A stretch of DNA of 64,000 bases from an uncultured Clostridium sp. (GCA_946487895.1 CAMLUO010000001.1:41540-105539); one strand, 5' to 3'. Shown: positions 57,034 to 64,000, counted from the stretch's first letter. Notes: generated by a model from the sequence alone, not told the origin. Made by a program: numbers and translations.

Positions 57034-58666
57034 TTATTGTGCATAGTCTGATATTAATGCAGCTGAATTGTTATTAGTTTTGTACATGCTATATCGCTCT
57101 CTACCCAAAGCTCTAAAGTAAGTTTCAGCTAATGTTCCACCTTGAGCAGCAATGTAAGCATATATACTATTACCATAGGTATTTGCTGTATTATTATCAC
57201 TATTTAGATCTTCAACATTTGATTGATTTACTATACTTGTATAACATCCTGATTCTTTATGTGGATAATAATATGTTACTCCTGTATCTGTTGTTACTGA
57301 TTTTCTTTCGAAATCCACGTTAAAGTGTGCTCCGAACTATATTACTATTTCCTACTAAATCTTTATCTGTGGCCCTATGATATTGTCCATCTGAAGTAAT
57401 TAAGTATATTGAATCTGTATTTACAACTTCTTCAGTCTTAGTATTTGTAACTATTGAATATCCATTGTATACTTTTCCGCCTATACTTAGTCCTTGCATG
57501 AAACTAATTACTGATACATTATTTAATATTTGTTCCCACTCATCTTCTTGTAATTCTGGCATTAAGAAATTAGTAGTTAAGCCATTATCATAATTGTTAT
57601 AATTTGCTATTGCTATTGATAAGTTTTTTTCAATTGAATATCTAATTACTTGTAATCTATGTTGATTAAAATCAGAATTAGGGTCTTCTATTGATAAACC
57701 TTTATTAGTTGAATCTTCTTGTCTTGTAAAGATAGGTACATCTCCCCATCCTTCATTTTCTGCAAGTCCAGTAGATCCATCTTCTTCATAAACAGCGTCT
57801 GATGTTCTTAAATCTCCTAAATTGTCTTGTACCCATTGCGTAAATTCTTTTGCATCTCTATAATATCTTACTCCTGAATCATTTGTTGTGTCATATATAG
57901 TACTTTGATAATATTTTTGACCATTTAACATTGAGTACCATCTACCATCTGTATCTAAATAGTATTTTACTCCATTTATCTTGGTATAATTTACTTGATT
58001 TCCTGTACTATCTACATATTCTGTTAATGTTTCTTCTCCTATTGTTACTCCTCTATATGTTATAGTATTATTTGATTCGTTATAATTTCCTACATTATCT
58101 AGTAAGTACCCATATTTATATACTGTTTCTCCTTTAACTGTTCCCTGAACTGTTATATAGTTATCCAGTGAGTATGTTATTACTACATCTGTATTACTAT
58201 CTGGGATATATCTACAGCTATAAAAAATATATGGTTTTAATCCTGATATTCTTTCACCATCTTGGTATGTTGATGAGTCTGTATAATCATCTGATGTTAG
58301 TGTGTTTGTAAAAGGTGAGTATATATAGTATCCATCATACATGGTATATACTATTGCTGGTACATATTCTTTCAATATATCTTGATTATATCCAGCCATG
58401 TTAAAATTAGTAGCAATCGAATTAAAAAATGTATTTACAGATGCCTCTATATCTCTCAGTTTTGAATTCGCTAAATCCGATGTGCTACTATTGACAGTAT
58501 TTAATTGAAACGCTTTTAAAGCATCATATGTCGCATTTGTTAATTTTGTGTCATATGATACTTGCAATTCCAAAGTTTCAACTTGGTTTTGTACATATGC
58601 AGTTACAATCATAGATATCGGTAAAATAATGATAATAAATATAACCGCTAAGTTTTGTATTTTCAT
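57034..58666 (-). CDS. Large pilus-locus protein (N-terminal TM anchor), split into two ORFs by a 1-nt insertion
   Basis: ORFs 57320-58666 and 57034-57318 abut. ATA GTT C GGA GCA; deleting the C (plus base 57334) reads ...GNSNIV-GAHFNVDFERKSVTTDTG..., giving about 542 aa. AAGGAAAGAG RBS. Confidence 0.6.
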
Positions 58667-58694
58667 ATTTCTCTTTCCTTAGTATATCATTGTT

Positions 58695-59234
58695 CTAATT
58701 TCCTGCACCATTTGCTGTTACAATTCCGCCATGTTCTGCAGCAATTACATATGTATCATTTCCAGTTACAGAGTAAAAGAAGTTTTTAAGTTGTTGTGAC
58801 ATTGTTGTATTTGTATTATTTACTTTTGTAGAAAATATATCTCCTTCTTTTAATGCTAATGTTTTTGTTTGTCCACTAGATGGGTTTATTGTATCTAATA
58901 TTTGTGAAGTATACATTGTGTAATATACATTTTCTCCTATCTTTGTTGCTTCTGCCTGTGTAGTTTTCTTTCCTGGATTTTCATCTAATACTTGTAATTC
59001 CATTTCTACTTCATAAGAGTTTCCTGTTGATGAAATATTTTCTACAAATTGACTATATTTATCCATTGTCAATTTTCCTGTTGTTCTTACGTCATCCACA
59101 AACTCTGTTGTAGCTGTTTCCACAGTAAGTTGTGATACATCGTCTGTTCTATCAGACATTGTCATTAGTGGAAAAACAAACATTAGAACTGCTGCTAAAA
59201 CTATTGCAATTATTGTAATTAATGTATCTCCCAT
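58695..59234 (-). CDS. Pilus-locus protein with an N-terminal hydrophobic helix (TadE/pseudopilin-like position)
   Basis: MGDTLITIIAIVLAAVLMFVFPL.... AAGGAGGA RBS. Confidence 0.5.
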   Translation of the reverse strand: MGDTLITIIAIVLAAVLMFVFPLMTMSDRTDDVSQLTVETATTEFVDDVRTTGKLTMDKYSQFVENISSTGNSYEVEMELQVLDENPGKKTTQAEATKIGENVYYTMYTSQILDTINPSSGQTKTLALKEGDIFSTKVNNTNTTMSQQLKNFFYSVTGNDTYVIAAEHGGIVTANGAGN

Positions 59235-59270
59235 ATTTATTCCTCCTTATGGGTAAGTCATTTAATTGGT

Positions 59271-59942
59271 TTAATCTGGTATTGAATACGTTATAACCCT
59301 TTTTATTGTTTTATTTGCATCTGGAACTGAGCTTGTTGTTTCATCATCAGATGTTTCTCCATCATATCCAGCAATTGGTGTTTCTTCTTGGTAGTAAACA
59401 CCTAGACTTTCCTTTAAACCAGTCCCTCTACCTTTTATTTTATCATAAATTCCCTCATCATTCAAGTATATTCCCAAATTATCTACAAAATTCACTTTTA
59501 CTGTGTCAAAATCTGCATATCTTTCACCATAAAGAATTGACATGATAAATTGTTCTTTTTGAGTATCATTTCCTAAAACTTCATTTTGTAAATCTATACT
59601 ATATACTCCTACAAAATCACCAGCGTCATTTCTCCTTCTGTATATTCCATCAGTTCCCAGTAATGTAGGTGCTCCTTCTGAATCTTCATTGTCTTTAAAC
59701 ACAATTTTATAATTTTCCTTATATGCTTTGTAAATTGAAGGTACTATACTTTCTAATCCTACTATTCTTTCAGTTGTTCCATTATCTTCAACATATGTAT
59801 AACTATATTCTCTATCTTGACGATCTAATATAGTTGTAGCTGTCATTCTTGCTTCACTAAAAGCATTGATACTTATGGTCAATGCCACCACAAATATCAA
59901 TACAGCTGCCGCCATATATAATGCATCTGTTGCATTTTCCAT
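59271..59942 (-). CDS. Pilin-like protein (MENATDA leader)
   Basis: ATG at 59942 follows AAAGGAGAG. MENATDALYMAAAVLIFVVALTISINAF resembles the MENASKAL N-termini of the neighbouring paralogs. Confidence 0.55.
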   Translation of the reverse strand: MENATDALYMAAAVLIFVVALTISINAFSEARMTATTILDRQDREYSYTYVEDNGTTERIVGLESIVPSIYKAYKENYKIVFKDNEDSEGAPTLLGTDGIYRRRNDAGDFVGVYSIDLQNEVLGNDTQKEQFIMSILYGERYADFDTVKVNFVDNLGIYLNDEGIYDKIKGRGTGLKESLGVYYQEETPIAGYDGETSDDETTSSVPDANKTIKRVITYSIPD

Positions 59943-61960: not shown

Positions 61961-61974
61961 AATTTATACTCCTA

Positions 61975-62806
61975 TTAATTAAATTCACCTGTAAATTCAA
62001 AGTCCATTCCGAGTTATTCTTCCCGTATTTTCATTGTATGTTACATTTGTACAGTCAAAACGTGCCCTTTTAAATTGTACATATTCATAGTATTTATATA
62101 TGTTATTTCTGATTGAACCACTTGTATCTGCACTTACTTTTAAATCATTCCAAGTTATATTATTAACTGTATATGTTGTTCCATTTGTTCCATCATTTTT
62201 TATTGTTGTTATTGAGTTCTTCTTACATGCGCTTTTAAATGCTGCTACTGCATCATTTTGTTGACTTGTTGATGGATTTGTTGGAAATATTTTTGTAATA
62301 TTTGTTGTTAAATTGGTTAATGAGTTTGTTCCAAATGCATTTTCTAAACTATTAATCGTTGGCTGGATAGTATTTTCAAATGTATTTGTATTTCCACTCA
62401 CAGTATATGTCGTATTCCCATTTCCAGTAAATAATCTATTTTTATTATCTGCTGACAATTCAGAAACATTTATATTAAATTTGATAGTTATTGGCTCATA
62501 TGCAATATCTGTTCCTTGGTCTGCCCATGTAGTATCTTCTGAATTTCTAGTTCCTGCTGTTGATTGTGTTCTATTATAATTTATTGCATTATTTAATAAT
62601 GAATATAAATCACTTCCTCGTACATCGTCATGATTGTATGTTGAGAATTGATTATTAAATTCTACAACTTGAGCACTTCTTTCTCCTTGTGTATTTGTTT
62701 CTTGATAGCTTGATAAGTTGGAAAACATCAAAAGTAATGCTCCAATTATCATCAATGCAATTAATACTCCACCTGCCATTATTAATGCTTTTGATGCATT
62801 TTCCAT
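61975..62806 (-). CDS. Pilin-like protein (269 aa class); the C-terminus may also need a 1-nt skip
   Basis: MENASKALIMAGGVLIALMIIG.... As assembled it ends NENTGRITRNGL-stop (61997). Skipping the C (plus base 62011) gives NENTGRITGMDFEFTGEFN-stop (61975), which fits the paralog hydrophobic pattern better. Confidence 0.55.
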
Positions 62807-62842
62807 TTATCTCACTCCTTATTTTCTGATTATTTCTAATGT

Positions 62843-64000
62843 CTATTGTACAGCTGTCATTGATGTAAATGAACTTGACATACTTGTCAATCCTATAAAT
62901 ACTAATGGTATAATTAAATATCCAACAAACATACAAACCATTGGAGCAAATCCTATAATTTTTCCTATCATTCCTTTTCTTTTTATTAATCTATCATTTG
63001 ATTCTTTTCTCTTTTCTTGATAGTAATCTCTTTCTGAATCTAATTCATCAAATGCGTCTGTGATAGGTATTTTTTCAACTGCTGCCTGCAAGCTTTCTAT
63101 TATTCTTATTAATGGTGTGTAGCTTACTTCTTCTTTCATTTGTTCTAAAGCTTCCCATGCTCCTGCTTCATAGTTGTTAACACACTTTGCTATTGGTGCT
63201 TTAAATATATTTGAATATCTTTCTAACCATTCTAATATAATTTCTACATTTACTCTTTCAATTCTCATTAGCATCAATATGATTGTTTGAAATTGCATTA
63301 CTTCATCTTCCATTTCTAGTTGTCTCATCTTAACTTGGAACATAAGAATCCAAATTGGTGCCATATATCCTATTATTGCAAATACAAATGCTAATAATAT
63401 CTCAAACCATTGCATATATTCACTATTGATTACATCTAATTTTTCTCTAATTCTTTCTACTGCCTTATCTATTTCGGCTTCATCTTCTTCATAGTAATAT
63501 GGTAATCTTTCTACTGCCATTCTTATTTGTTCATCTGTTGTATTTGTCTTTCCTTTAAATTGATCTAATATTTTATTATCTTGTTCTGTCAATTCTATTG
63601 CTTTTTGTTCATCTTTTTCCGACAATCCACCTATTATATCATAATCGGTCGTCGGTTCTGTATATATGTAATTTTTTGCTACCGCATGTAGTTGTGAAAA
63701 TATTATTATTGATACAATAAATGTTACTATAAATAAACATATCCTATTTGTATACAGCCATTCCATTTTCTGTGATGAAGCTGCATCTTTTAATAGTTGT
63801 CCAACCTTTCTATATTCTTTTGTACCTTCTTTTGGAATAAATAAATCTACTATCTTTTTAATTATTTTTTTCTTATATAATCTTGCCTGCCATGGATTTT
63901 CTGTATTTTTTGTATTCATTCCAGTTGAGCCATTATCTTTTAGTTTTCTAACAAGTATATAAGATATAAATGTTAATAATAATATTATTATTTGAGCTAT
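62843..64000 (-). CDS. TadB/TadC (GspF/T2SS-F)-like polytopic pilus platform protein; 5' end beyond the window
   Basis: The reading frame stays open to base 64000. It shows a TM / cytoplasmic helical domain / TM layout, with an LE.E...F......M.......I..WL....N......I......G...AL ... P pattern typical of T2SS-F domains. Confidence 0.5.
   Translation of the reverse strand: MAQIIILLLTFISYILVRKLKDNGSTGMNTKNTENPWQARLYKKKIIKKIVDLFIPKEGTKEYRKVGQLLKDAASSQKMEWLYTNRICLFIVTFIVSIIIFSQLHAVAKNYIYTEPTTDYDIIGGLSEKDEQKAIELTEQDNKILDQFKGKTNTTDEQIRMAVERLPYYYEEDEAEIDKAVERIREKLDVINSEYMQWFEILLAFVFAIIGYMAPIWILMFQVKMRQLEMEDEVMQFQTIILMLMRIERVNVEIILEWLERYSNIFKAPIAKCVNNYEAGAWEALEQMKEEVSYTPLIRIIESLQAAVEKIPITDAFDELDSERDYYQEKRKESNDRLIKRKGMIGKIIGFAPMVCMFVGYLIIPLVFIGLTSMSSSFTSMTAVQ

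Follow-up and report, generated by a model that had tools for sequence, protein, structure and literature searches.

In a 64,000-nucleotide stretch of DNA from an uncultured Clostridium sp. (GCA_946487895.1, CAMLUO010000001.1:41540-105539; hereafter the window), an array of co-directional minus-strand genes reaches from position 57034 to the right edge at 64000. We conclude that this region is probably the distal portion of the Tad-like pilus cluster in the chromosome of TANB77, an order of uncultured gut Clostridia, and that its genes are orthologs of genes 931-938 reported by Kim et al. in 2024. As the cluster was published in that year, and given the match in size, order and topology to the published table together with the placement of the relatives in TANB77, the finding is a rediscovery. 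New is that the machine family is not confined to TANB77, homologs being carried by chromosomes of Paenibacillus and by megaplasmids of Bacillota.

Kim et al. (Nat Commun 2024) described the pilus cluster as genes 927-938 of HRGM_Genome_2725 and found a cluster of 10-14 genes in 122 of the 129 TANB77 species, its proteins being termed exclusive to TANB77 within the gut catalogue (PMC11680825). Their Table 1 lists a CpaB-like protein of 358 amino acids (aa), a TadZ-like protein of 231 aa, a CpaE-like protein of 280 aa, a TadA/CpaF-like protein of 640 aa with one transmembrane (TM) helix, a protein of 693 aa with 8 TM helices and six proteins of 143-237 aa without detectable homology that have a single TM helix or a signal peptide; at the distal end the sizes run 143/146/237/178/621 aa, the large last protein being 'pilin 938' (PMC11680825). 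On contigs related to the window we read 366/232/278/654/691/249-269/159-162/143/144/222-226/177-179/526 aa, and order, sizes and TM topology agree with that table, the identity being set by architecture and taxon and not by residue-level comparison. The two clusters share a gut Clostridia lineage, gene order and near-identical sizes, an 8-TM TadC/TadB-like platform, a one-TM ATPase, a set of single-TM proteins without homology and a large last protein, whereas in the strain of the window the 144-aa gene is duplicated and the 'pilin 938' ortholog carries a frameshift. The relatives are metagenome-assembled genomes of gut Clostridia, including Clostridium sp. CAG:273, and CAG-273 is classified as TANB77;CAG-508 (PMC13508870). 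The initial annotation of the window, made from its sequence, had proposed several alternative major and minor subunits, in agreement with the published annotation (PMC11680825). The published work consists of bioinformatics and immunology with one recombinant protein; leaders, N-terminal motifs and a prepilin peptidase are not discussed in it, and the word 'prepilin' occurs zero times (PMC11680825).

An open reading frame (ORF) listing of positions 54000-64000 returned every gene of the array that had been annotated, all in one direction and followed by spoIVB. The platform gene is open up to base 64000, and its full product, a single polypeptide of 691 aa with about 8 TM segments, was read in contig L001. 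In the predicted structure of this protein the best matches are the cytoplasmic domains of PilC and EpsF, so that the model gives the platform a PilC/GspF-like fold, and its halves have been reported to resemble TadC and TadB (PMC11680825). The platform family comprises 1159 representatives at 50% clustering. With an alignment of 11 closer platform sequences, a 68-sequence alignment being too divergent for locus searching, the scan of species genomes gave at least 586 matching stretches and returned 80 loci, each from a separate genome record. Given the size of this family, the number of matching stretches and a gene order that is kept across 88 loci, the array lies far beyond what chance would produce.

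The genes past the right edge were read from contigs with identical or 92%-identical proteins, that of the ATPase from L001, which holds a C-terminal fragment of it, and from L004. Upstream of the platform gene the related contigs carry, in this order, a CpaB-like SAF protein, two ParA/MinD-like (TadZ/CpaE-like) proteins and the ATPase. This ATPase, of 654 aa with an N-terminal TM helix, matches PF00437 (T2SSE) with 28.1 bits (cut-off 24.9); its top NCBIfam match is the TadA-type model TIGR03819 ('TadA family conjugal transfer-associated ATPase'; E 5e-9, 35.9 bits against a cut-off of 373), and its closest solved structure is CpaF (E 4e-10, residues 270-539), PilT reaching 0.058. The secretion ATPase that had been predicted to lie just beyond position 64000 is thus present next to the platform gene in the related contigs. 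The CpaB-like protein scores 24.1 bits for SAF (cut-off 21) and 2e-6 for TIGR03177 cpaB; the 278-aa ParA/MinD-like protein gives a CbiA/ParA match of 23.3 bits, below the cut-off of 25.4, and the 232-aa one had no match in a Pfam scan. By these matches, the locus contains a CpaB-like component of a Tad system and, weakly indicated, a TadZ/CpaE-like one. Together, the CpaF-like ATPase, the CpaB-like protein and the platform fold bear out the initial assignment to a Tad-related, type IV filament-like locus.

All small subunits are 143-269 aa long and start with M-E-N or MKK, and a post-helix motif, FxxY..G....G..V, is common to the five MEN-type proteins and the MKK paralog. Four genes in the window (269, 159, 144 and 144 aa) start with MENASKALI, as had been noted; the second of these proteins, which reads ...IMAAGV..., deviates slightly from the proposed continuation [IM]AG[AG][IV]. 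An alignment of 120 homologs shows residues 1-33 of the 144-aa protein to be nearly invariant, with identity dropping to 57% beyond them; over the 88 loci, the N-terminal 33 residues of the subunits are 66-79% identical against 34-38% in the residues that follow. The control anchors at these loci lack this N-terminal excess (MKK paralog 56/56, ATPase TM helix 61/87), and the excess conservation of the subunit N-termini is a pilin-like pattern. The copy number of the 144-aa gene varies between loci, with a mean of 2.8 matches per locus, which suggests that the gene is still being duplicated and its exposed domain diversified.

These features would fit a machine in which the small proteins insert N-in/C-out through their conserved N-terminal helix and the ATPase, acting through the platform, extracts them and stacks their helices into a surface filament or a short pseudopilus crossing the Gram-positive wall. 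The tandem 144-aa genes would be the best candidates for the major subunit, and the remaining paralogs could, like the 179-aa and the large protein, serve as minor or tip subunits.

Several results weigh against reading the cluster as a pilus of this kind. A filament has never been seen for this system. The T2SSF (PF00482) Pfam signal, expected from the initial description of the platform as T2SS-F/TadC-like, occurs in 0 of 68 diverse platform members (24-68% identity); a profile search of PDB sequences with the platform alignment gave no match, and hhalign detected no profile similarity between its N- and C-terminal halves. For the small subunits, Pfam and NCBIfam scans, a PDB profile search and structure comparison detected no resemblance to any pilin in sequence or structure; the globular domain in the AlphaFold2 model of the 144-aa subunit (predicted local distance difference test score 77.7) matched no solved pilin structure. 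The array has no Flp-type pilin, G/XXXXEY motif or TadE Pfam match: the motif is absent from the subunits, as annotated, no Flp-type ORF was found in the intergenic gaps, and Pfam gave neither a Flp nor a TadE hit at E<=1. The label TadZ-like depends on the sub-threshold CbiA match given above and on a published Foldseek result (PMC11680825). Finally, the prepilin peptidase that the initial annotation had placed just past the right edge did not turn up there, as none of the genes within +/-10 kb in four annotated loci (L004, L006-L008) belongs to the A24 family, nor was one found in the plasmid homologs, with an A24 peptidase annotated in 0 of 5 plasmid loci.

Of 327 MEN-type genes in related loci, 325 have a Shine-Dalgarno-like motif, mostly 6-11 nucleotides before the ATG, which together with gaps of 28-83 bp in the array is in line with the strong ribosome-binding sites and short spacing originally noted. 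An in-frame stop lies at most 7 codons upstream of the MEN start in 248 of the 327 genes and another upstream start is possible in 18; a leader hidden upstream of MEN was ruled out by these stops, the rarity of alternative starts and the Shine-Dalgarno spacing. Since the genes start at the MEN methionine, a leader could comprise at most the seven residues MENASKA, with a net charge of 0. A Sec signal peptide cut by signal peptidase I after Q-A-A-G was likewise considered and is unlikely, the N-terminal 33 residues being almost invariant, unlike those of usual signal peptides. Quite possibly the subunits are used without cleavage; somewhat less likely is that they are trimmed at K-A/L (slashes mark junctions) by a housekeeping A24 peptidase encoded elsewhere, the peptidase searches having covered the window and the related loci. 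The absence of a recognisable leader, with no accompanying peptidase gene, poses a mechanistic question for the biology of type IV filaments, and a literature search returned nothing relevant on leaderless or peptidase-independent pilins.

The initial annotation had seen in the K-A/L and D-A/L junctions a class III (archaeal-type) leader, and a canonical type IV assembly in which such leaders are cut after K-A (or D-A) by a PilD/TadV/PibD-like peptidase encoded elsewhere is the likeliest of the rival readings, albeit a doubtful one. The K-A-[LI] element before the helix does recur widely, as SKAL in TANB77 and Thermobacillus, RKAL on a C. botulinum plasmid, TKAI in A. pseudofirmus and VKAI in L. 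sphaericus, and one distant branch has the textbook leader MLKKG/MEY. To our knowledge, all characterised type IV filaments require such a prepilin peptidase, and in Bifidobacterium breve tadV sits outside the tad locus. Yet in many relatives the -2 residue is T, D, E or S (e.g. MNNASTA/LK, MENATDA/LY) and in some the -1 residue is F (MENIASF/LK, VAF/LQ, VSF/LQ), the MENASKA cap has no net positive charge, and M-E-N-A is invariant within TANB77, which would be unusual for a leader that is discarded. A conserved Lys before a TM helix is equally predicted by plain N-in anchoring. Moreover, the five plasmid loci, which might be expected to be self-sufficient, have no annotated A24 peptidase, the GxGDxK motif is, but for three stray matches, absent from the window and the 88 loci (1.64 Mb together), and the polytopic ORFs elsewhere in the window are HlyIII, VCA0040-like and DUF212 proteins, none of them A24. 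A Glu at +5 was absent from the subunit helices examined in the window and its relatives. The distant branch (L089, 5506-7070) has subunits beginning with MLKKGMEYIGEII or MLKPGMKYIAMVIE, with a Shine-Dalgarno motif ahead of the first Met; their start resembles a conventional short K-K-G leader, and the protein has only 4 relatives in a large protein collection.

Another rival, which we hold to be rather improbable, is that the cluster is not a pilus at all but a Tad-derived export/display or DNA-transfer-associated device, the small proteins being its substrates or membrane components and the plasmid relatives serving mating-pair formation or plasmid spread. The conjugal transfer-associated name of the top NCBIfam model for the ATPase points this way, though that match is far under its cut-off, as do the occurrence of homologs on 35 megaplasmids, the plasmid neighbours (a replication-relaxation protein, cell-wall hydrolases, NlpC/P60 and SSB), a Paenibacillus locus that adjoins genes for a 1323-aa FtsK/SpoIIIE protein and for a WXG100 protein, and a predicted subunit fold unlike that of pilins. 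Against this, all 35 megaplasmids were typed as non-mobilizable, and the excess conservation of the N-terminal helix is a signature of polymerising subunits and not of cargo. In TANB77 the cluster is chromosomal and single-copy, with fixed synteny, and 122 of 129 species have it (PMC11680825), all of which indicates a cellular function passed on by vertical inheritance. Very improbable is a tie to sporulation, in which the cluster would be transcribed together with spoIVB and function at the surface of the forespore or spore, for instance by forming a spore appendage. The position directly upstream of spoIVB that had been noted is real: the cluster is co-directional with this gene, lies 105 bp upstream of it, has no terminator-like sites in its intergenic regions and adjoins it in 71 of the 88 loci, and relatives have a SASP gene upstream and spoVG downstream. 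The adjacency is, however, found in none of the homologous loci outside TANB77, those of Paenibacillus and the plasmids included, and is therefore a lineage-specific synteny; spoIVB is frameshifted in the window and independently in L006-L008 while the cluster genes are mostly intact; and in DNA this rich in AT the scans for promoters and terminators carry no information (57 promoter-like sites versus 61 expected).

Set beside the Tad/Flp systems (type IVc; Caulobacter, Aggregatibacter, B. breve), the TANB77 cluster has in common a CpaF/TadA-type ATPase, a CpaB-like SAF protein, ParA-like proteins of the TadZ/CpaE type, the GspF/PilC-type platform fold and several minor-pilin-like genes after the platform gene. 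It differs in that its platform is one fused polypeptide without a T2SSF sequence signal, that its ATPase has an N-terminal TM helix and extensions of ~260 and ~115 aa flanking the CpaF-like core, and that a Flp pilin of 50-70 aa, the G/XXXXEY motif and TadE/TadF Pfam signals are lacking; there is no TadV in or near the cluster, and no secretin, as expected for a monoderm. With archaeal type IV pili (class III signal peptides; PibD/FlaK/EppA) it shares a very short cap preceding the hydrophobic helix, an element resembling [KR]-[GA] in many members and the lack of a conserved Glu at +5, but the cap is uncharged, positions -1 and -2 are not conserved family-wide, no peptidase was found at the loci and the predicted globular domain matched no solved pilin structure. 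The archaeal-type character suggested by the initial annotation was not borne out either, the ATPase being, on the available evidence, CpaF-like and not FlaI/archaeal-like.

The 35 megaplasmids with homologs of the cluster belong to Paenibacillus, Clostridium (C. botulinum and C. argentinense among them), Lysinibacillus (pBsph), Butyrivibrio, Thermobacillus, Alkalihalophilus and others. The core gene order is kept in the loci examined outside TANB77 (five on plasmids and several on other contigs). The megaplasmid clusters, comprising those of L. sphaericus pBsph, A. pseudofirmus pBpOF4-01, T. composti pTHECO01, B. proteoclasticus pCY186, C. botulinum p12/29 and the P. polymyxa M1 plasmid, resemble that of TANB77 in having SAF, two ParA-like proteins, an ATPase, a ~680-aa platform, a ~150-aa subunit and proteins of ~180 and ~325 aa, as well as a post-helix motif, YDN..VSGS.V.NA. 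Platform identity is 25-39%, they have one or two small subunits versus five to seven in TANB77, and they carry extra genes for an SLH or Cu_amine_oxidN1 wall-binding protein, a ~1100-aa DUF5704 protein and GGDEF proteins. Orthologs of the 179-aa protein, the best conserved of the small proteins (median identity 66% in 78 loci), are likewise present in Paenibacillus and plasmid loci. Carriers that can be cultured, such as Paenibacillus, Lysinibacillus sphaericus and Alkalihalophilus pseudofirmus, make filament formation and subunit processing testable without culturing TANB77. It is conceivable, although unlikely, that the cluster is a distinct, unclassified branch of the type IV filament superfamily across Bacillota, with a fused platform, a membrane-tethered CpaF-like ATPase and ~150-aa subunits of a new fold that start at the polymerisation helix (M-E-N...) and are assembled without a prepilin peptidase; if true, this would be the first peptidase-independent type IV filament.

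In the plasmid loci of pTHECO01, p12/29, pBsph, pCY186 and pBpOF4-01 (L094-L098) and in three Paenibacillus loci (L090-L092), SLH or Cu_amine_oxidN1 and DUF5704 genes mostly lie downstream, sometimes with GGDEF genes, and some plasmid and Paenibacillus loci adjoin a plasmid replication or replication-relaxation gene, cell-wall hydrolases or SSB. One of the Paenibacillus clusters (L091) is flanked, at 1-2821 and 20277-20660, by the 1323-aa double FtsK/SpoIIIE ATPase and the WXG100 protein, a type VII secretion-like arrangement. A distant copy of the cluster on a 165-kb contig (L093; Logan SRR22464949) has as neighbours a DNA-ligase-like gene and one encoding a 2484-aa protein that joins Rpb2-type and Rpb1-type RNA polymerase domains, and this contig may be a very large mobile element. 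In Paenibacillus records (clusters of P0346, P0398, P0424 and P0426) the platform is annotated as hypothetical or as 'GTPase SAR1' and the ~156-aa subunit as 'ABC transporter permease', annotations that look wrong.

The features of the array are given in Table 1. Scans of the ten window proteins against Pfam and NCBIfam gave noise only, also for the supposed TadC-like protein, and a search for a phage origin among 50,697 phage records gave zero matches. Three further metagenome contigs hold an exact copy of the 269-aa MEN-type subunit. The MKK paralog's counterpart, gene 934, is annotated with a signal peptide in the published table (PMC11680825). The tandem 144-aa genes (59993-60919) have a nucleotide identity of ~83% and a protein identity of 77%. 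For the MENATDALY gene, the ATG at 59942 was preferred over the GTG at 59951 given by the ORF finder on the basis of Shine-Dalgarno spacing.

Table 1. Genes of the pilus-like array in the window, from the platform gene at the right edge to the large anchored protein
Feature	Coordinates	Strand	Basis
Polytopic platform gene, 3' part (last 385 codons)	62843..64000	-	Probable ortholog of gene 931 (Kim et al. 2024); ORF listing
MEN-type pilin-like subunit, 269 aa, MENASKALIMAGGVLIAL...	61997..62806	-	ORF listing; motif comparison
MEN-type pilin-like subunit, 159 aa, MENASKALIMAAGVLIGI...	61481..61960	-	ORF listing; motif comparison
MKK- paralog with hydrophobic N-terminus, 143 aa	61003..61434	-	Probably corresponds to gene 934
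MEN-type pilin-like subunit, 144 aa, tandem copy 1	60485..60919	-	ORF listing; homolog alignment
MEN-type pilin-like subunit, 144 aa, tandem copy 2	59993..60427	-	ORF listing
MENATDALY- subunit, 223 aa from ATG	59271..59942	-	Probable ortholog of gene 936 (222-237 aa)
MGDTLITII- anchored protein, 179 aa, MGDTLITIIAIVLAAV...	58695..59234	-	Probable ortholog of gene 937; ORF listing
Large anchored protein, probable 'pilin 938' ortholog, frameshifted (ORFs of 448 aa + 94 aa)	57034..58666	-	Alignment to the intact L004 protein

The large anchored gene, initially read as a single protein of ~542 aa, consists of two ORFs in different frames, 57320-58666 (448 aa) and 57034-57318 (94 aa), which align to residues 1-434 and 441-525 of the intact 526-aa ortholog in L004. 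A single extra base near 57320 splits it (AATATAGTTCGGAGCA), at a site that is not a homopolymer. 'Pilin 938' reportedly activates dendritic cells via TLR4 and makes anti-PD-1 therapy more effective in mice, and the abundance of TANB77 has been found to parallel the response to immunotherapy (PMC11680825); should the protein serve as a biomarker, it is relevant that its ortholog is frameshifted in some strains, the one of the window included. Contig L001, which is 99.7% identical and comes from another metagenome sample, shows the same splits of the 'pilin 938' ortholog and of spoIVB. The latter gene is divided into 56092-56928 and 55650-56285 on the minus strand; one ORF takes in positions 2-32 of the Peptidase_S55 profile, the other positions 27-210. 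The split, at about 56240, stems from a single additional C (GCATTG-C-GGACATGG) immediately ahead of the conserved GHG motif. In L006-L008 spoIVB is broken at another site (VLVVG/MSEIEG), and these spoIVB splits may reflect a recurrent loss of sporulation in TANB77 or else assembly errors. A segment of ~0.8 kb between spoIVB and murC (L001 9650-10462, present also in L004) is missing from the window at about 55676-55706, so that the spoIVB frame in the window has an altered C-terminus and overlaps the end of murC. This segment holds a small coiled-coil repeat gene and, in L001, an N gap, and the difference may be a deletion or a repeat collapsed during assembly.

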